Positions 6,265-13,956 are shown, counted from the stretch's first letter. The stretch: DNA of 47,837 nt from Eubacteriales bacterium (GCA_045577475.1 JAZNIM010000045.1:1-47837); one strand, 5' to 3'. The notes: generated by a model from the sequence alone, not told the origin. Numbers and translations are program-made.

Positions 6265-6411
6265 GATGTTCAATCCTTTCTTCATAAAGATTATAATTGT
6301 CCTTATCTCTATTATACAAGGATTTTTTGCCATGTAAATTGAAAAAAGTTGTTTTTTGTATTGCAAAATGTGTAATGTTATGATAATATTACATTGTCAG
6401 GAAGTGAAACT

Positions 6412-7236
6412 ATGGAAAACAAAGCCAAAGACAACAACATAATCGTACATCACACTTTACGGGAACATGTAACACCGGAAAGCTTTAACTCCGAGCCTCA
6501 CACTCACGACAGGTGTGAGCTATTGTTTCTGAAAAAAGGAAATCCCAAGTATTTTGTTGAAGGCAGAGATTATAAACTCTCCAAAAATACTCTTATAATT
6601 TCACGCCCCGGTGACAGACACAGAATATATTTTGAAGAACCGTCCGTTTATGAAAGATACAACATACTGTACGATGAAAGTAAGTTGCCTGAGGGTATAT
6701 TTGAAAGCATTCCATCGGATATAGACGTTATAAATTTTGACGGTAACAGTGTAGTCAACGAGCTTTTCAGAAAAACAGACTTTTACAAAGAGCATTTTTC
6801 CTCCTACCAGCTTTCAAGTATTCTATGCAGCATCACCGAGGAAATTTTTTATAACATTGCCATTGTTTCAAAGAATCTTCCCTCACGTACATGCAGTGCT
6901 TCGTCAAACCCTCTTGTAAGTACGGCAGTAGAGTATATCAGCGAAAATTTGAGAACCGTATCGGGAATTGATGAGCTTTGCGAAAAGCTGTACATTACAA
7001 AAAGCCATCTTCACCACCTGTTTATAAAGCATCTGCACATAAGTCCCAAAAGGTACATTCTGTCAAAACGTCTTGACCTTGCAAGAAATGCGATACGTTC
7101 GGGAAACCGTCCCGTTGATGTGTTTTCCGAGTGCGGTTTTTCGGACTATTCCACATTTTACCGTGATTACAAAAAAGCCTTCGGACACGCTCCGTCGGAG
7201 GAATCAGATTTTCCGTTGTCACTTCAGCTGTCTTAA
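6412..7236 (+). CDS. AraC family transcriptional regulator (cupin plus double HTH)
   Basis: PHTHDRCE cupin motif and C-terminal CGFSDYSTFYRDYKKAFG; divergent from the nag operon. Confidence 0.92.
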   Translation: MENKAKDNNIIVHHTLREHVTPESFNSEPHTHDRCELLFLKKGNPKYFVEGRDYKLSKNTLIISRPGDRHRIYFEEPSVYERYNILYDESKLPEGIFESIPSDIDVINFDGNSVVNELFRKTDFYKEHFSSYQLSSILCSITEEIFYNIAIVSKNLPSRTCSASSNPLVSTAVEYISENLRTVSGIDELCEKLYITKSHLHHLFIKHLHISPKRYILSKRLDLARNAIRSGNRPVDVFSECGFSDYSTFYRDYKKAFGHAPSEESDFPLSLQLS

Positions 7237-7244
7237 TTGACAGC
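7227..7244. repeat. 18-bp palindromic target site GCTGTCTTAATTGACAGC (intact copy)
   Basis: Identical to the sequence obtained by joining 7534-7542 to 12513-12521. Confidence 0.85.
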
Positions 7245-7533
7245 CTGAGCTAATCGCAAAACCCTTTATGAAAGTTTAGGTCAAGCCGAACAAGGTACCC
7301 AACTGCGTTGGGTTCGAGCTTTCAACCAAATCAAAGATTTGGGAAAGCACGAAAAGGCTTGCAATTTCCAAAGACAGAGTCTTTGGTCGCTGTCCGCAGA
7401 CAGCGAAACTCCTTGTGCTTCATAAAGCGCAGGAAAGGTGAATTTTTCGTCCCCAAAAGGACGAAAAAGAGGAAAACCCTCGCCGGGGGTTTTCCTTAAA
7501 CGTGACATAAAACATACTTTTTCAACAAACCAC
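7245..7533. mobile_element. MITE/REP-like hairpin-rich element, copy B, flanked by an 18-bp duplication
   Basis: Homologous to 2128-2282 in inverted orientation; multiple stem-loops; lies between two copies of the 18-bp palindrome. Confidence 0.7.
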
Positions 7534-7715
7534 GCTGTCTTATGAGGCGTACTCGTAAGGACAGTAATTCTAAAGGCTGAACGATTAATTTTGTTCAGCC
7601 TTTTATCGTAGGGTTCGGCGGTTTCCCATCAACTGAAAAGGTCTTAGGATATCCTGATTATTGGAAAATGATATACATTTTCCCTGATTGTTACAGTACC
7701 GGACAAAAATAACTA

Positions 7716-7744
7716 TTGACAGCTTTCTTGAATTATGCTATACT
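7716..7744 (+). promoter_or_regulatory. Sigma-A promoter of lacI-family gene
   Basis: TTGACA-17 bp-TATACT with extended -10 TG. Confidence 0.8.
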
Positions 7745-7746
7745 TA

Positions 7747-7762
7747 GTGCAACCGATTGCAC
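7747..7762. promoter_or_regulatory. LacI-type operator 1
   Basis: Palindrome GTGCAACCGATTGCAC just downstream of the -10 box. Confidence 0.75.
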
Positions 7763-7776
7763 CGGAGGTGAGTTTT

Positions 7777-8805
7777 GTGTCAAATGTTACTATATATACA
7801 CTTGCAAAGGAATTGAATATGACTCCGTCAATGATAAGCCGTGCATTTAGTCCAAACGGAAAAATTAGTGAGAAGAAAAGAAAACTAATATTGGAAGCTG
7901 CGAATAAATATGGTTTTACACCAAATAAATTTGCTTCAAGGCTATCAATGAAAAATGTACGTATTGGCATACTTATCAATAGTCGATTTCCTGTCAATAC
8001 CGATAAAATGATTGCAGGTATTGAAAGTGCTTATGAAAAATTAAAAGATTATAAGATCCAGTACGATATAAAAATAATGAATTCTCTTGAAAACAAAACT
8101 GAAGATTGTGCTGAGGTTCTGAATAAATATAAAAATTATAATGGGATCATTGTTGCCGGGATGAGTTCAGAAAAATATACCTATATGTTAAATGAAGTTT
8201 GCAAAGAAAATCCCAATGTTGTACAGGTGCAGGCAATAAATAAATCCGTTGACTGCCTTTTCGTGTCAAAGCATAATGAGGAAACAGCCTCTAGCCTTGC
8301 AGCAGAATTTTTATATAATTGTCTTAAAGATAAAAAGAGAAAAAATATTTTGCTTTTTACCGGGGACAAGGACAGTGCGCTTCACTCCGATGCAGAGTCT
8401 GCCTTTAAAAATGCATGTAAAGAATTTGGATTAAGTATTTTAAAAAGTATTGATATGAAAGATAACAAAGAATATTTTTCTGAAATCATTTCTGATGTTT
8501 TCGAAAAATATATCAAAGAAACGGACGGAATCTACATAACCAGTGGAATAAGCTCACCCCTTTGCGAATATATAGATGAAAATAATATATCCGTTCCCTT
8601 TGTCAGCTTTGATACATATCAAGATATAAAAAAATATATAAAAAAGGGAATTATATCTGCTACCATTGCGCAGAATGTGGAAAAACAAATGGAAAACGCT
8701 TTTGAATATCTTGTGAAACATATTATAATGGGGGAAGGCTCTCCCAAAACTGTATACACAGATGTTCAACTTGTTTTAAAAAGCAATATACATCAATTTA
8801 ACTAA
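7777..8805 (+). CDS. LacI family transcriptional regulator
   Basis: VTIYTLAKELNMTPSMISRAF HTH, GFTPNKFASRL hinge and periplasmic-binding-like domain; GTG 7777 follows GGAGGTG. Confidence 0.9.
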   Translation: MSNVTIYTLAKELNMTPSMISRAFSPNGKISEKKRKLILEAANKYGFTPNKFASRLSMKNVRIGILINSRFPVNTDKMIAGIESAYEKLKDYKIQYDIKIMNSLENKTEDCAEVLNKYKNYNGIIVAGMSSEKYTYMLNEVCKENPNVVQVQAINKSVDCLFVSKHNEETASSLAAEFLYNCLKDKKRKNILLFTGDKDSALHSDAESAFKNACKEFGLSILKSIDMKDNKEYFSEIISDVFEKYIKETDGIYITSGISSPLCEYIDENNISVPFVSFDTYQDIKKYIKKGIISATIAQNVEKQMENAFEYLVKHIIMGEGSPKTVYTDVQLVLKSNIHQFN

Positions 8806-8820
8806 AAATTTTTGGAGTTG

Positions 8821-8835
8821 GTGCAACCGATTGCA
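8821..8835. promoter_or_regulatory. LacI-type operator 2
   Basis: GTGCAACCGATTGCA, identical to operator 1, upstream of the transporter gene. Confidence 0.72.
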
Positions 8836-8848
8836 ATAGGAAGAAATT

Positions 8849-9700
8849 ATGTTGTTTGTTCAAACTATTATATCAATATCGTCTATGGTTCTTCAGAACT
8901 GCCTCTTTAATAATATATGCAAAAAGGAACTAACAACAAATAATCACATATACAGATTTAACATGATTATGTATGCTGTGTGTATAGCGTTGTTTGGAAT
9001 AGCTGTTTTGGGCGGACAAGTGTCTTTTTTTACAGTCGCTTTGGGACTTTTGTTTGGAGTAGTTACCGCACTCAGTAATTTATATAAAATGCGTGCTCTG
9101 ACTTCAGGTCCGATGCATATCACACTTTTGGTAACAACATCTTCTATGATTATTCCTACGATGTCCGGAATATTTTTCGGAGAAAGATTCAGTGTTTTAA
9201 AACTGATTTTAGTAGGAATTTTAATAGGATTTATATTTTTATCATTTGATAAAACTGACAATAAGAAAGCAAACGGAAAATGGCTGTTTTTCTGTGTGCT
9301 GGCATTCCTATTCCAGGGAAGTGTTGGCGTATTACAGAAAATACATCAATCCTCTGCATGCAAAGGTGAGCTGAACGGATTTTTGCTTGTTGCATTCGTT
9401 TGCTCGCTCATTTACAGCAGAATAAGAGCACAAAAAAACTACAGAGAATTAAAATTCGGAAAAAAGCATATTATTTTTGCTATTGTGTGTGGTGTTTGTA
9501 CATATCTTATGAATTTTTTAAACCTGAAATTATCCGGATTGCTTCCGAGCCAGTTGTTTTTTCCGCTTGTAAACGGAAGTGCGATTGTTTTAAGCTCGTT
9601 GATGTCTGTGCTGATTTTTAAAGAACATCTTTCAAAGAAGCAAATTGTAGGTCTTGTTGGAGGAATAACATCATTAATTTTAATATGTTTTGTTGGATAA
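8849..9700 (+). CDS. EamA/DMT family transporter
   Basis: About 10 hydrophobic segments in two repeats ending in FFGERFS and IFKEHLS. Confidence 0.82.
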   Translation: MLFVQTIISISSMVLQNCLFNNICKKELTTNNHIYRFNMIMYAVCIALFGIAVLGGQVSFFTVALGLLFGVVTALSNLYKMRALTSGPMHITLLVTTSSMIIPTMSGIFFGERFSVLKLILVGILIGFIFLSFDKTDNKKANGKWLFFCVLAFLFQGSVGVLQKIHQSSACKGELNGFLLVAFVCSLIYSRIRAQKNYRELKFGKKHIIFAIVCGVCTYLMNFLNLKLSGLLPSQLFFPLVNGSAIVLSSLMSVLIFKEHLSKKQIVGLVGGITSLILICFVG

Positions 9701-9757
9701 AAAAAGGTATTATGATAAAGAAGTTTATATTACATTATGAAAAACGGAAAGGAAGAA

Positions 9758-10582
9758 ATGATAATGAACCGGACACCACCATGGGAAGGGAGATTCCCGG
9801 CAGTAAAGATATTTGGGAATTTGTATTTTGTGGGAACAAAACCTGCATCAACCCATATTATTGATACCGGAGAAGGTCTTATAATGCTGGACAGCGGATA
9901 TCAGCATTCATTATACAGTGTGATTGACGGAATTTACAATGTAGGTCTTGATGCTCATGACTTAAAATATATTATACATACTCACGGACATATCGACCAC
10001 TTTGGTGCAACGAGAGCACTTGTGGAGCTTACAGGTGCAAAAACATTTTTGGGTGAGGCGGACAGACAGTATGCAAACGGGGAGCTGGATTTATCGTATG
10101 CAAAAGAGCTTGATATGGAATTTAACGAAATATTTGAGCCCGATATTTTAGTGAATGACGGTGATATAATTGAGCTTGGAAATACAAAAATTAAAGCTGT
10201 AGCAACACCGGGGCATACACCGGGGGCAATGTCATATTTTTTCGATGTTACAAACGGAAAAGATACTTTTCGGGCGGGGCTTCATGGTGGCATGGGGATA
10301 AATACCCTTTGCAGGGAATTCCTTGATAAATATAATCTTCCGTATACTTTGAGGGATGATTTTAAACTGTCAATGCTCAGGCTTAATGAGGAAAAGGTTG
10401 ACATATTCTTAGGCAACCATATGCAACATAATCGTACTGAAGAAAAAGCAGAAAAAGTAAGAAACGGAGAAGAATATGCGTTTGTTAATCCGGATGAATG
10501 GGCAAAATATAATCTATGGTGCATCAAAAATCTTGAAAAAATGATAGAAATGGAGAATAAAAATAATGAAACCAAGCTTTAG
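9758..10582 (+). CDS. Metallo-beta-lactamase fold hydrolase, subclass B3-like
   Basis: KIFGNLYFVG, HTHGHIDH, TPGHTPG and LGNH motifs; ORF is open from 9737, RBS favours 9758 or 9764. Confidence 0.85.
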   Translation: MIMNRTPPWEGRFPAVKIFGNLYFVGTKPASTHIIDTGEGLIMLDSGYQHSLYSVIDGIYNVGLDAHDLKYIIHTHGHIDHFGATRALVELTGAKTFLGEADRQYANGELDLSYAKELDMEFNEIFEPDILVNDGDIIELGNTKIKAVATPGHTPGAMSYFFDVTNGKDTFRAGLHGGMGINTLCREFLDKYNLPYTLRDDFKLSMLRLNEEKVDIFLGNHMQHNRTEEKAEKVRNGEEYAFVNPDEWAKYNLWCIKNLEKMIEMENKNNETKL

Positions 10583-12452
10583 TTTTAAGTATGATGAAAA
10601 AGAATTTTTGTTAGAAAGTAACCAAGCGTATGAAATTGAAAAAGGTATTATTGTAACACCTGTAATTAAAGAATATAATGACTTGAATGCTATAGAGTGG
10701 GTTTTGTATTTTGAAAATAAGTCAGATAAAAACAGCGGAATCTTTTCAGATATTTTTGATTGTGACTCACTGTTACCACTTAAAATACCGGATATAAAAA
10801 GACCGGGTTATATGCCAAAAAGCGGTGATGCTTGTATCATAACAATGAATGGTATGGTTGATGGCAGATATTACTGGGAAAATGACAAAAAAAGTGCAAT
10901 GGAATACTGCTTTAATTATGAGTATCTTGATAAGGCGGCAAATCTTACCAAAAGCTTTGCTAATGTTGGCGGACGTTCAAGTGATGGAACAATGCCGTTT
11001 TTCGATGTAACAGCTCTTGAAGCCGGATATATTGCGGCGATTGGATGGACAGGCGACTGGAAAGCGGAATTTACGAAGAAAGATAATGGAATTCGGATTA
11101 AAACAGGATTAAAAGAAACAGAATTCTATTTAAAATCGGGTGAAAAAATTCGTACTTCTTCAATTCTTATTATGAAATATAATAATGGTGAGGATAAGCA
11201 TAACAAATTCCGAAAACTTATAAAAAATCATTTTTCACATAAAAGCTGTACATATGCTGAACGTGATGCTCTTATGGCATGTGAACTTTGGGGCGGTCTT
11301 ACAAGTGAAGAAATGAAAAAGAGAATAAATGAATTTAAAAAATATGATATAAAGTTTGAGGATGTATGGTTGGATGCAGGCTGGTACGGAAATTGCATAA
11401 AATGCGACGAAGCTTTCAGTGGTGATTGGGGAGAGCATACCGGAGAATGGGAAGTAAACAAGCGTGTGCATCCTCAGGAGTTAAAAGATGTTTCGGATTG
11501 TGCAAAAGAAGCAGGAATGCAGCTTATGCTTTGGTTTGAGCCAGAAAGAGTAATAGAAGGAACACCGATAACAAAAGCGCATCCAGAATGGTTTATGGAA
11601 TTACCGGGCAGAAATGATAAAATTCTTAATTATGGAAATGATGAGGCAACGAAATATGTGTGTCAGCTACTTGAGAGGTATGTAAAAAATCTCGGTTTGT
11701 CGTGCTACAGACAGGATTTTAATACATCACTCACAAGCTATTTTAAAGCAAATGATGAAGAAAACCGCCGTGGTATTACTGAAATCAAACACATTACGGG
11801 AATGTATAATGTGTGGGATTATCTGCTTGAAAAATTCCCTGGTCTTATTATAGATAACTGTTCGTCCGGCGGAAGAAGAATTGATATAGAAACCTTAAAA
11901 CGTTCTATTCCGTTCTTCAGAAGTGATTATCAGTGTAATTTCAACGAAAATCCTGAGGTTTTGCAGACGCACAACTCTAACATATCATGTTATTTGCCAT
12001 ATAATGGCTGTACAAGCAAAACAAAAAATGACACCTATGCTATAAGAAGCTCGTATTCCTCAAGCTGGGGCGGTGCATTTTACAATGCTATATTCCAGAG
12101 CATGGATGAAGAAGATTTTGCATGGGCGAAAAAAATAACCGACGAATACAGAAGTATCCGAAAATATTTCTCTATGAATTTTTATAATCACGGTTCATAT
12201 TGCTTTGATGATACATCCTGGGCAATATGGCAGTATCATGATGCTGATTCGGGAAGCGGCATTGTAATGGCTTTTAGACGGTGCCAATCACCGTTTGATA
12301 CTGTAAAAATAAGATTAAAAGGACTTTTAGACGGTAAAAACTATACCTACAAAAATCTGGATGACAATACCGCGTTTATTGCAACTGACATTTTAGAAAT
12401 CACCTTACCTCATAAGAGGAGTTCTACAATTTTTGAATATGTAACAAAATAA
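10566..12452 (+). CDS. Alpha-galactosidase-like glycoside hydrolase (GH36)
   Basis: WLDAGWY, LWFEPER, RQDFN (nucleophile), NCSSGGRRID and RSD (acid/base) motifs. Confidence 0.85.
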   Translation: MKPSFSFKYDEKEFLLESNQAYEIEKGIIVTPVIKEYNDLNAIEWVLYFENKSDKNSGIFSDIFDCDSLLPLKIPDIKRPGYMPKSGDACIITMNGMVDGRYYWENDKKSAMEYCFNYEYLDKAANLTKSFANVGGRSSDGTMPFFDVTALEAGYIAAIGWTGDWKAEFTKKDNGIRIKTGLKETEFYLKSGEKIRTSSILIMKYNNGEDKHNKFRKLIKNHFSHKSCTYAERDALMACELWGGLTSEEMKKRINEFKKYDIKFEDVWLDAGWYGNCIKCDEAFSGDWGEHTGEWEVNKRVHPQELKDVSDCAKEAGMQLMLWFEPERVIEGTPITKAHPEWFMELPGRNDKILNYGNDEATKYVCQLLERYVKNLGLSCYRQDFNTSLTSYFKANDEENRRGITEIKHITGMYNVWDYLLEKFPGLIIDNCSSGGRRIDIETLKRSIPFFRSDYQCNFNENPEVLQTHNSNISCYLPYNGCTSKTKNDTYAIRSSYSSSWGGAFYNAIFQSMDEEDFAWAKKITDEYRSIRKYFSMNFYNHGSYCFDDTSWAIWQYHDADSGSGIVMAFRRCQSPFDTVKIRLKGLLDGKNYTYKNLDDNTAFIATDILEITLPHKRSSTIFEYVTK

Positions 12453-12489
12453 AAAATGGTTGTATCGTCGTACGGTACAACCATTTTTA
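12453..12489 (+). terminator. Intrinsic terminator at the right end of the cassette
   Basis: AAAAATGGTTGTA...TACAACCATTTTT stem. Confidence 0.75.
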
Positions 12490-12595
12490 TGTCCTTAAGA
12501 GTACATGGCATAATTGACAGCTTTTTTATTGACTCAGAATAAATCTCTGCAAAACCTCACAAGATAAGCATATTAAATTAAGTGAGGAAAACAAA

Positions 12596-13357
12596 ATGAA
12601 CAAAAACTTTTTCAACTCAGAGCAAGCGGAAGACCAAAACAACGAAAAAAACAAACAGGACAGCGGTGAAAAACTCCCCTCGGATATTGATTCAATACGC
12701 TCGCTGGGTTCTGTAACAACGGATAACGGCTCGGCAAAAATCCATACTCTTGTTATTGCAGGGCAGATTGAAGGACACTATGAGCTTCCCAGTGCCACAA
12801 AAAGCACAAAGTACGAGCATGTAATCCCCCTTCTTGTGGAGGTTGAGGAAAACGACGGCATTGACGGACTGCTTATAATTCTAAACACCGTCGGCGGAGA
12901 TGTGGAGGCGGGACTTGCACTTGCAGAGCTTATTTCGGGCATGACAAAGCCAACCGTTTCATTGGTTCTCGGCGGAGGGCATTCCATCGGAGTTCCATTA
13001 GCGGTATCGGCAAAAAAATCCTTTATCGTCCCTTCCGCCACAATGACAATTCATCCCGTGAGAACCAGCGGAACGGTTATCGGTGTGCCTCAGGCGTTTA
13101 CGTATCTAAGGAAGATGCAGGAGAGAATATCGGATTTTATAGTGAAAAACTCGGATATTTCCCTTGAAAGACTTAACACTCTTATGCTTGAAACAGACGA
13201 GCTTGCTGCGGATATAGGAACGGTTATTGACGGCTTGACGGCGGTAAACGAAGGGCTTATAGACGAAGTGGGCGGCTTGGGACAGGCTTTGTCGGCACTT
13301 AAAGAAATGGTAAGCAATGGCAAAAAAAGTGCTTCCTCGTCGGTTGAGGAAGCATAG
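12596..13357 (+). CDS. tepA: ClpP-like translocation-enhancing protein TepA
   Basis: GQIEGH, TKYEHVIP, LNTVGGDVEAGLA, SLVLGGGHSIG and IHP motifs. Confidence 0.85.
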   Translation: MNKNFFNSEQAEDQNNEKNKQDSGEKLPSDIDSIRSLGSVTTDNGSAKIHTLVIAGQIEGHYELPSATKSTKYEHVIPLLVEVEENDGIDGLLIILNTVGGDVEAGLALAELISGMTKPTVSLVLGGGHSIGVPLAVSAKKSFIVPSATMTIHPVRTSGTVIGVPQAFTYLRKMQERISDFIVKNSDISLERLNTLMLETDELAADIGTVIDGLTAVNEGLIDEVGGLGQALSALKEMVSNGKKSASSSVEEA

Positions 13358-13431
13358 CATAAAATAATGTTCCGAGTCCGGAAAAAACAGGTCAAAGCAA
13401 CTTTGTTTTCAGAACTCTGCAACAGCCGTTA

Positions 13432-13956
13432 TCAGAACCATTCGTGAACACACAGGGGACAAACCTCGGGGTGGGTGTTGCCTGTAACGGTGTATCCGCA
13501 TACGGGACAGCGGAAAGAAGTGTTGGCATCCCATATCTTACTGCCGTCAAGATCCGACATTCTCTCACCCATTCTGTCCGCATGGTCATTCTTAACGGAT
13601 GCCGCCATGCGGAATTTGTCTGCAATTTCGTGAAAGCCCTCTTCCTCGGCTATGCGTGCCATATCGGAATACATGGGATTGTCTAATGCCTTTGAAATAT
13701 CCGAAAGCCTTGCAAGATTTTCAACCGTATCCTCAATTTCATCAAGATATCCCAGCCACAGCTCGCCATGACTTACGTCGTTGTCGTGCATCTCATCAAG
13801 CATTCGTCTTGTGGAAGCGTCCCCGCTGCGCTCTGCTTCCTTTGAATATATACTGCCACGCACCGCCGCCGCTGCTTCATGCTCAAAGGCACGCATGAGG
13901 TTGTCGGCGGTTTTTGTGCCGTCAAGTGCTTTATGGGATGATGTATTGTTATTCAT
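13432..13956 (-). CDS. Rubrerythrin family protein with degenerate diiron site
   Basis: TADNLMRAF, EEEGFHEIA and C-terminal CPVCG...CPLC rubredoxin domain; ATG 13956 follows GGAGG. Confidence 0.78.
   Translation of the reverse strand: MNNNTSSHKALDGTKTADNLMRAFEHEAAAAVRGSIYSKEAERSGDASTRRMLDEMHDNDVSHGELWLGYLDEIEDTVENLARLSDISKALDNPMYSDMARIAEEEGFHEIADKFRMAASVKNDHADRMGERMSDLDGSKIWDANTSFRCPVCGYTVTGNTHPEVCPLCVHEWF

Follow-up and report, generated by a model that had tools for sequence, protein, structure and literature searches.

Within a stretch of 47,837 nucleotides from an Eubacteriales bacterium, the whole of which is referred to here as the window, positions 7543-12510 very probably represent a non-autonomous cargo element, similar to a mobile insertion cassette (MIC), from a family that is defined by its ends and is apparently undescribed. 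We hold with similarly high confidence that members of this family possess inverted ends of about 25 nt and are inserted at WA (where W is A or T) in the loops of terminator hairpins. With the same confidence we conclude that they span MITEs (miniature transposable elements with inverted repeats) of 0.2-0.4 kb, single-gene elements, and cassettes of 3-5 kb in which a regulator is combined with metabolic genes. As an explanation of the whole we incline slightly toward a MIC-like element that derives from a Y1 element of the TIRtron type, with the Y1 transposase supplied in trans.

Ends, target and extent of the family

The left junction reads GCTGTCT (7534-7540), TA (7541-7542), TGAGGC (7543-7548) and GTACTCGTAAGGACA (7549-7563). 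The right junction reads TGTCCTTAAGAGTAC (12490-12504), ATGGCA (12505-12510), TA (12511-12512) and ATTGACAGC (12513-12521), and both agree letter for letter with a prediction previously made from the sequence alone (the original prediction). TA is present on both sides and the cassette splits a hairpin, as had been claimed for an insertion at a TA inside a terminator palindrome. Symmetric 21-bp ends containing a 15-mer had also been described. This 15-mer is found at only two sites in the window, inverted to each other, with 0.11 expected (100 shuffles), and the inverted ends therefore stand; the conserved unit, however, is really a 17-mer, with the consensus GTACTCTTAAGGACAGT; on its outer side lies a tip of 6 variable nt, and beyond this tip the dinucleotide. 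The interior is AT-rich, as had been noted, with a GC content of 0.350 in 7543-12510 compared with 0.438 and 0.441 for the 5 kb on either side, and the GC content of third codon positions agrees, with values of 0.28-0.34 for the four cargo genes and 0.41-0.52 for the neighboring genes. Inspection of the four cargo genes and of the genes next to the cassette revealed no recombinase, which upholds the statement that it contains no transposase or integrase.

The 17-mer provides a search key for the family. With up to 2 mismatches it gave 123 matches in 164 genomes of the bacterial family (a hand count), compared with 38 for a reversed control, and with at most 1 mismatch it was found in 46 of the 401 genomes of the order, the control matching in 4 genomes. 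It is concentrated in some bacterial families of the order and was not found in two of them, represented by 47 genomes each. The exact 17-mer is present in at least 120 stretches of genome contigs and had 0 matches in viral contigs. Among the matches listed, 79 of the 80 stretches are metagenome-assembled genomes (MAGs) labelled Oscillospiraceae, Acutalibacteraceae, Ruminococcus, Clostridia or Eubacteriales, and many of these come from ruminant guts. The remaining one, a Bacteroides contig without the A-run context (L164), was left out of the counts of 79 ends that follow, all of which refer to the matches listed. An A-run and a stem lie outside the end in all 79 Clostridia-type ends, 68-76 of these ends having A at positions -15 to -12, and the tips have the consensus NGGGNC. 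The dinucleotides at these ends were AA (45), TA (23), AT (5), GA (2), TT (2), CA (1) and AG (1), and single ends of the CTTAAGG type had AA in 45 cases and TT in 2.

The original prediction had called for a search of this genome and of gut MAGs for paired ends. When ends were paired over all fetched loci, with pairing restricted to ends that had one of five variants as their central 7-mer, 56 distinct inverted pairs of about 0.2-5 kb were recovered from gut MAGs of the Oscillospiraceae/Acutalibacteraceae type; we found no description of them in the open-access literature, and the suggestion of a family known by its ends alone is thereby sustained. The same dinucleotide was present on both sides in 49 of the 56 pairs (TA 20, AA 14, TT 13, AT 2). 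In 42 of them the two flanks paired with each other over at least 6 consecutive positions, compared with 8.8% when partners were shuffled, and in these 42 elements the flanks rebuild a terminator consisting of an A-run, stem, loop, stem and T-run. The target stems are unrelated in sequence across the family, having only the A and T runs and the WA in common.

The dinucleotide is also oriented. Among the 27 AA/TT pairs, 22 have distinguishable ends (..CTTAAGG.. and ..CTAAAGG..), each of the 22 having AA 5' of its CTTAAGG-type end; these elements are related to one another, and hence no formal probability is attached to the count. That many members have AA or AT, and with a polarity that is fixed, indicates that the duplication of the dinucleotide is not specific for TA. 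Further, the polarity of AA is unlike what a symmetric DDE transpososome would produce, and is expected of a recombinase that matches its core sequences or of a strand-specific enzyme.

Cargo and evidence of movement

The genome that contains the window (G000) holds a second cassette, at C87:52117-55986, which encodes DeoR, class II aldolase, iron-containing alcohol dehydrogenase and GDPD proteins, has TA on both sides and splits the hairpin GAACCGCC-GTAA-GGCGGTTC. This second cassette is also present in G009 and G003, at 88-89% identity and in other hairpins. The window cassette itself recurs in G005 at 97% identity, compared with 73% for the adjacent housekeeping-type gene tepA, and the right junction there (...CATGGCA-TA) is identical to that of the window and is followed by an unrelated flank. 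No left end was found for this copy, on contig C1 of G005, and it looks one-ended; an unrelated 72-aa open reading frame (ORF) abuts the lacI promoter (L015:1240-1500, L049), as in a rearranged copy. A cassette with AraC, GH5 and EamA genes is shared by G005 and G114, which belong to different genera (g1 and g4), and its flanks differ between them. These recurrences in other species, together with the 56 paired elements and their varied cargo, bear out the claim of a non-autonomous mobile cassette.

Other cargoes include AraC with a glycyl-radical enzyme and its activase, XRE-type proteins, a DUF4429-SHOCT protein, a BspA-type leucine-rich-repeat protein, NPCBM-domain proteins and small uncharacterized proteins. 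When the 321 ORFs of the 80 listed loci were clustered, no cluster extended to more than 3 loci. The left 170 bp of the window cassette recur beside unrelated genes in other genomes, and two more copies are present in G000, on C87, where the copy forms the end of the second cassette, and on C240. The latter (C240:2304-2475, L116), the third left-end module in this genome, carries an intact GTAG-tagged repetitive extragenic palindrome (REP; GTAGGGGCGATTCACGAATCGCCC) between its hairpin and the conserved module described below; no right-end partner was found for it and it looks one-ended.

In G149 a 340-bp MITE of the family is present in many near-identical copies that break contigs. Since 40 matching pieces were found, at many contig ends, the sequences indicate a recent burst. 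This MITE has an AA core and resides in a MAG of 2.1 Mb (for example L095:1001-1339, L100, L099 and L102); inside it, small hairpins are arranged in an array with GTGATGT after each, and comparable arrays with other 8-mers are found in the MITEs of L132, L120 and L126. At one of the MITE copies in G149, the relatives differ both in the genes upstream and in the terminators, and so offer no empty site for comparison.

Several smaller element types were encountered. AA-type elements of about 850 bp (L204:5919-6524, L171, L249, L245, L121, L229) occur in many MAGs and encode a small Cys-rich protein (..CCCDECDYF..) that belongs to no Pfam family; a seemingly recurrent 201-aa "ORF" of these elements was discarded, as it consists mostly of conserved non-coding end sequence together with the small Cys-rich ORF. 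Four elements (L172:2664-3077, L159, L176, L210) encode a DUF559/Vsr-like endonuclease-type protein and a 171-aa protein of no known family. Homologous XRE proteins of ~295 aa, with a helix-turn-helix (HTH) domain, are encoded at L103:1335-2237 and L105:1549-2427, in different genera and in elements with AA and TA cores. They are 30% identical over their full length and their C-terminal part matches no known family, and they were rejected as a recombinase of the family, since beyond the HTH domain they do not recur elsewhere.

Empty sites were also sought. The araC-like and tepA-like matches in relatives lie on separate contigs, with no syntenic site, and no empty site for the C87 cassette was found in the genus. 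The original prediction had pointed to an intact site within the window itself, at 7227-7244. The 18/18 match of this 18-mer (GCTGTCTTAATTGACAGC) stands, and no other site in the genome resembles it with up to 2 mismatches, but it is not an independent empty site, since the hairpin was duplicated by an unrelated repeat that lies between its two copies (7246-7533). Further copies of this repeat are found in G000 (C233:7427-7643, C212:696-912, C42:108-328, C194:5470-5676, C45:2128-2266) and in several relatives, including many in G008, G011, G012, G013 and G022. It consists of serial small hairpins and has no match in Rfam. When nine copies were aligned, most had the same terminator hairpin on both flanks, 10-23 bp in length, and duplicated hairpin flanks were seen in 4 of the 5 copies in G000 in which both blocks are assembled. 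The two copies of GCTGTC-TTAATT-GACAGC thus arose when the repeat was inserted at the araC-like terminator and duplicated its hairpin. The cassette entered the distal hairpin copy after the insertion of the repeat, and the proximal copy is a paralogous empty site with a single TA. The duplication of whole inverted repeats, of 19-26 bp, is described for IS1630, an IS30-family element of Mycoplasma fermentans (PMC2853133; PMC3317919). The likeness is to the repeat that duplicated the 18-bp hairpin and does not concern the cassette, and IS1630 differs in that no IS30-type gene is tied to this repeat.

Candidate enzymes

The only class of recombinase seen inside members of the family is the Y1 HUH transposase. 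One locus (L165) has an ORF of 163 aa that matches Pfam Y1_Tnp, and homologues in L192 and L235 have the same gene content and are situated in different hairpins with TA. In G157, a homologue on C148 adjoins a family right end, on C73 a family left end lies directly upstream of the Y1 start, at the end of the contig, and on C42 (L076) an element of ~650 bp consists of the Y1 gene only, with family ends and TA on both sides. The left end of the window cassette aligns with that of this Y1-only element, the TA and the tip TGAGGC being common to the two. A family right end lies no more than 250 nt from the Y1 stop codon in 5 of 35 distinct loci (high-scoring segment pairs shorter than 100 aa were excluded from the locus count), compared with 0 for the reversed control. 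The Y1 protein of the relatives scored 69.4 bits against the NCBIfam model for REP-associated tyrosine transposases (RAYTs; REP_Tyr_transpos), below the cut-off of 80, and 16.9 bits (P0001) against the IS200 model. The best sequence match in the PDB is TnpArep (4ER8), with an alignment that spans the HxH motif and YIxxNP. By these comparisons the predicted family Y1 is RAYT/TIRYT-like, and nearer to RAYT than to IS200. In L076 and in the loci on C73 (L320) and C148 (L323), two inverted REP-like sequences, each GTAG with a hairpin, lie within the Y1 coding region; their sequence differs between the two Y1 lineages, and in related genomes these REPs stand on either side of other RAYT genes as well.

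A second line of evidence comes from the left-subterminal module of the cassette, whose position and hairpins are given in the table below. The 8-bp stem of its second hairpin is retained in 27 of 31 homologues, and stem position 5 exhibits compensatory changes, from A-T to G-C in seven and to T-A in one. Several G-T pairs were also found, of a kind tolerated on one strand only. These counts were made by script, as RNAalifold recovered only hairpin 1 from the module alignment, MAFFT having misaligned hairpin 2. The compensatory changes and the one-strand G-T pairs suggest that the module acts as a single strand, of DNA or of RNA. This would fit a single-strand route of transposition, without being proof of one.

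On balance, we consider it somewhat probable that a RAYT/TIRYT-like Y1 HUH transposase mobilizes the family in trans. A more detailed proposal, that such an enzyme carries regulated cassettes as long as 5 kb in single-stranded form into terminator loops, is tentative. According to this proposal the split arms of the terminator and the inverted ends of the element would pair on single-stranded DNA, so that the two junctions come to lie side by side; cleavage by the enzyme would take place 3' of WA, both at the left flank and at the right terminus of the element; the cut strand would be released as a circle; and the circle would reinsert 3' of a WA exposed in the loop of another folded terminator. 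Such a mechanism would explain the loop target, the conservation of structure on one strand and the fixed polarity of AA.

A number of observations weigh against these assignments. No RAYT-like gene was found in G000 (best tblastn E value 0.49), where the Y1 content is limited to a classical IS200 TnpA on C22. Family ends are absent from 30 of the 35 Y1 loci, several of which are flanked by GTAG REPs instead, and on the tree the Y1s beside ends of the family show no significant clustering (4 changes, with 101 of 500 shuffles as low). The 56 genomes with the motif and the 53 with Y1 overlap in 22, where ~18 are expected among 164 (a hand count). The reading frame of the Y1-only element is interrupted near its 3' end in the assembly. 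Insertion of IS200/IS605 elements of the IS608 type is biased by the replication strand, and no such bias was seen in the family, in which the orientation of the AA end relative to the GC skew of the flanks, a noisy proxy on MAG contigs, was plus in 26 cases and minus in 28 (flanks shorter than 1500 nt excluded). In 14 of the 56 pairs the flanks are not complementary, so that the target hairpin, although usual, is perhaps not obligatory, or these sites have perhaps been rearranged. A head-to-head junction pattern had 0 matches in metagenome contigs, and short Logan contigs from 4 public runs, compared with 6300-13700, contained neither a joint of 7542 to 12511 nor a circle joint, a search in which contigs of this kind cannot demonstrate absence; one Logan contig spans the right junction. 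Because no RAYT-like Y1 was found in G000, because most Y1 loci lack the ends and because co-occurrence is at the level of chance, Y1 could be one more cargo gene, and other small cargo types recur as well. It should be kept in mind that all of the genomes are MAGs, from which multicopy insertion sequences are often missing, and the absence of any enzyme from them is therefore weak evidence.

The TnpA gene on C22 (13618-13974), which lies near a contig end, is of the classical IS200/IS605 type (134.5 bits on Y1_Tnp). The coding sequence upstream of it contains a near-match to the 21-mer of the cassette right end, probably by chance.

It is conceivable, if rather improbable, that an unrecognized enzyme or a host function moves the elements and that the Y1 genes are merely cargo. 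Most elements lack a recombinase, the small Cys-rich ORF and the DUF559 endonuclease-like protein are uncharacterized cargoes that recur, and the co-occurrence of the family motif with Y1 is weak, all as this explanation would have it. It does not account for the fact that Y1 is the only known recombinase class inside the elements, nor for the fixed place of Y1 beside the right end in two structural contexts, one of which is the Y1-only element.

The original prediction had looked to serine recombinases or IS630/Tc1-type transposases as the mover, and neither fared well. A serine recombinase encoded elsewhere, large or IS607-like, might recombine a circular form with a palindromic target; the circle junction would be a 48-bp palindrome centered on WA, and the target would have the same central dinucleotide. 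Half-sites of about 25 nt, inverted to each other on either side of a 2-nt core, do have the layout described for crossover sites (PMC4058570), the dinucleotide is identical on both sides in most pairs with the polarity of AA fixed, and G000 has five PF07508 matches. Nevertheless, we regard this reading as improbable. No serine recombinase gene is present in any element examined, and no family end (up to 4 mismatches) was found in the serine recombinase loci of G000 or on their contigs. G070, which is 98% complete and has 4 motif matches, has no PF00239 match, and the genome with the MITE burst, G149, has a single large serine recombinase, in an unrelated context, and no small serine transposase. 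The target stems are unrelated in sequence, unlike attB. The family has the identical 2-bp core between inverted half-sites of a large serine recombinase element, and has neither its gene in cis nor a specific attB. IS607 elements, which use a MerR-type serine transposase, are described as having neither terminal inverted repeats nor a target duplication (PMC6188088), whereas the present elements have inverted ends.

To a DDE transposase of the IS630/Tc1 or IS30 type, acting in trans with a 2-bp staggered cut at the center of the palindrome, we give as little credence. Terminal inverted repeats, often with TG tips, a 2-bp duplication and a sister hairpin with a single TA are in accord with it, and there are published precedents for the movement of MICs in trans by a cognate transposase (PMC3913671) and for the use of circles with abutted inverted repeats by IS30 (PMC9333248). 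However, no DDE_3 (PF13358) match was found in G000 or in five genomes that carry the family (G149, G150, G146, G116, G083), MAG incompleteness applying here as well. The sole rve (PF00665) match in G149 belongs to an IS3 that lacks the motif, and the PF01609 matches, likewise without it, are IS1182-like fragments. Further, although the window has TA, as would an IS630/Tc1-mariner MITE, the family is not strict for TA, many members having AA or AT, with AA always on the same side of the element.

That there is no mobile element at all, the 17-mers being regulatory sites associated with terminators and the AT-rich genes having arrived by ordinary recombination, would agree with the motifs adjoining terminators and with their few copies per genome, but this very improbable explanation is largely refuted by the base-exact relocation of the same cassettes to different hairpins across species, by the 340-bp MITE copies that break contigs at many sites in G149, and by flanks that pair to rebuild one hairpin.

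Interior of the cassette, known systems and implications

The features of the cassette and of its immediate surroundings are listed below.

Table 1. Coordinates of the window cassette, its target and its internal features
Position	Strand	Feature	Remark
7227-7244	.	Intact terminator palindrome, GCTGTC-TTAATT-GACAGC	Overlaps the araC-like stop codon
7246-7533	+	Unrelated multicopy repeat, about 225-290 bp	Outside the cassette
7534-7542	.	Left half of second hairpin copy (GCTGTCT) and left TA	
7543-7565	+	Left end: tip TGAGGC and 17-mer GTACTCGTAAGGACAGT	
7572-7603	.	Subterminal hairpin, AAAGGCTGAAC / GTTCAGCCTTT	Read from sequence
7608-7627	+	Decayed GTAG-tagged REP-like stretch	Inferred from alignment
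7640-7705	+	Conserved left-subterminal module	31 distinct homologues
7644-7657		Module hairpin 1, TTAGG..CCTGA	
7663-7683		Module hairpin 2, GGAAAATG-ATATA-CATTTTCC	
7690-7705		Module motif GTTACAGTACCGGACA	
7735-8805	+	LacI-family regulator	Cargo
8849-9700	+	EamA-family transporter	Cargo; weak RhaT/GlcU sugar symporter match
9737-10582	+	Metallo-beta-lactamase (MBL)-fold protein	Cargo; resembles subclass B3 metallo-beta-lactamases
10566-12452	+	Melibiase/GH36-like glycosidase	Cargo
12454-12487	.	Subterminal hairpin, AAATGGTTGTA / TACAACCATTT	Read from sequence
12488-12510	-	Right end: 17-mer GTACTCTTAAGGACATA and tip TGCCAT	Minus-strand reading of both
12511-12527	.	Right TA, right hairpin half (ATTGACAGC) and T-run	

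The position of the left subterminal hairpin is kept across the family and its sequence is not, and at the place of the decayed GTAG stretch sister modules have intact REPs consisting of GTAG and a hairpin. A scan of 7000-12800 with Rfam (E up to 1) gave three weak, chance-level matches, none of them at the ends or in the module. The MBL-fold protein scored 169.5 bits against the NCBIfam model for subclass B3 metallo-beta-lactamases, below the cut-off of 240, so that a B3-like putative enzyme appears to be carried on the mobile cassette. It also matches the exception model "HARLDQ not B3", likewise below the cut-off of that model.

TIRtrons are the closest described kind of element. In these, RAYT-like genes (TIRYTs) have terminal inverted repeats in place of REPs, and some of the repeats form dispersed families (PMC3733652; PMC6006769). 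Similarly, relatives of the window element (L076, L165, L192, L235) carry a RAYT-like Y1 between inverted ends, and the ends are also dispersed as repeat families. The published descriptions, as consulted here, cover small repeats and none of them deals with kilobase cargo, a terminator-loop target or a flanking 2-nt repeat, and their GGGGWSAS motif is matched only partly by the tips of the present family. The hosts here are gut Clostridia, and the window element, which itself lacks Y1, would be at most a non-autonomous derivative of a TIRtron. We found no description of kilobase cargo derivatives of TIRtrons, of a terminator-loop target or of a polar 2-nt repeat in the open-access literature searched; relatives may be among the TIRtrons that are catalogued in Additional files 4 and 5 of PMC3733652.

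MICs are described as passenger genes bracketed by inverted repeats, without a transposase gene (PMC3913671). The window element has inverted ends, a TA duplication and passenger genes, with no transposase inside or nearby, and on the basis of the same cassettes being found at different sites the best reading is that it is probably moved in trans, as MICs presumably are. The difference is that MIC231 depends on the IS4-family DDE transposase IS231A (PMC3913671), whereas a Y1 HUH enzyme is the candidate for the present element, which has a hairpin loop as its target. REPINs resemble the family in being non-autonomous inverted-repeat elements that are thought to use a single-copy Y1 (PMC3337134; PMC5581495). 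Both are intergenic and near terminators, and NCBIfam and the PDB match alike place the family Y1 nearest to RAYT. However, the family ends are not GTAG-tagged REP hairpins, the decayed GTAG stretch inside the cassette being the only trace of one, and the family carries up to 5 kb of genes and transfers between species. With IS200/IS605 elements (IS608, ISDra2) the family has in common a Y1 HUH enzyme, subterminal hairpins, a one-gene element of ~650 bp and insertion beside a specific short sequence (PMC6006769). Classical members lack inverted ends, and the family has inverted ends of about 23-25 nt.

Whatever the enzyme, these elements provide a route by which self-regulated metabolic modules pass between species of rumen and gut Clostridia and leave genes intact, and one such mobile module includes a protein that resembles a B3 metallo-beta-lactamase. 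Annotation that seeks a transposase misses elements of this kind, for which the ends are a simple key in searches of metagenomes. RAYT-type Y1 enzymes are widespread and their cellular role is still debated, while TIRtrons have so far only been catalogued. If the link to Y1 holds, a family with clear ends, a target defined by its structure, bursts that are recent and cargo of natural origin would make the mechanism directly open to experiment. If the single-strand reading is true as well, gut Clostridia would possess a cassette system that does without a recombinase in cis, leaves genes undamaged and restores a terminator on either side, and RAYT-type enzymes would gain a mobile substrate that can be demonstrated, together with a part in the horizontal transfer of metabolic modules.

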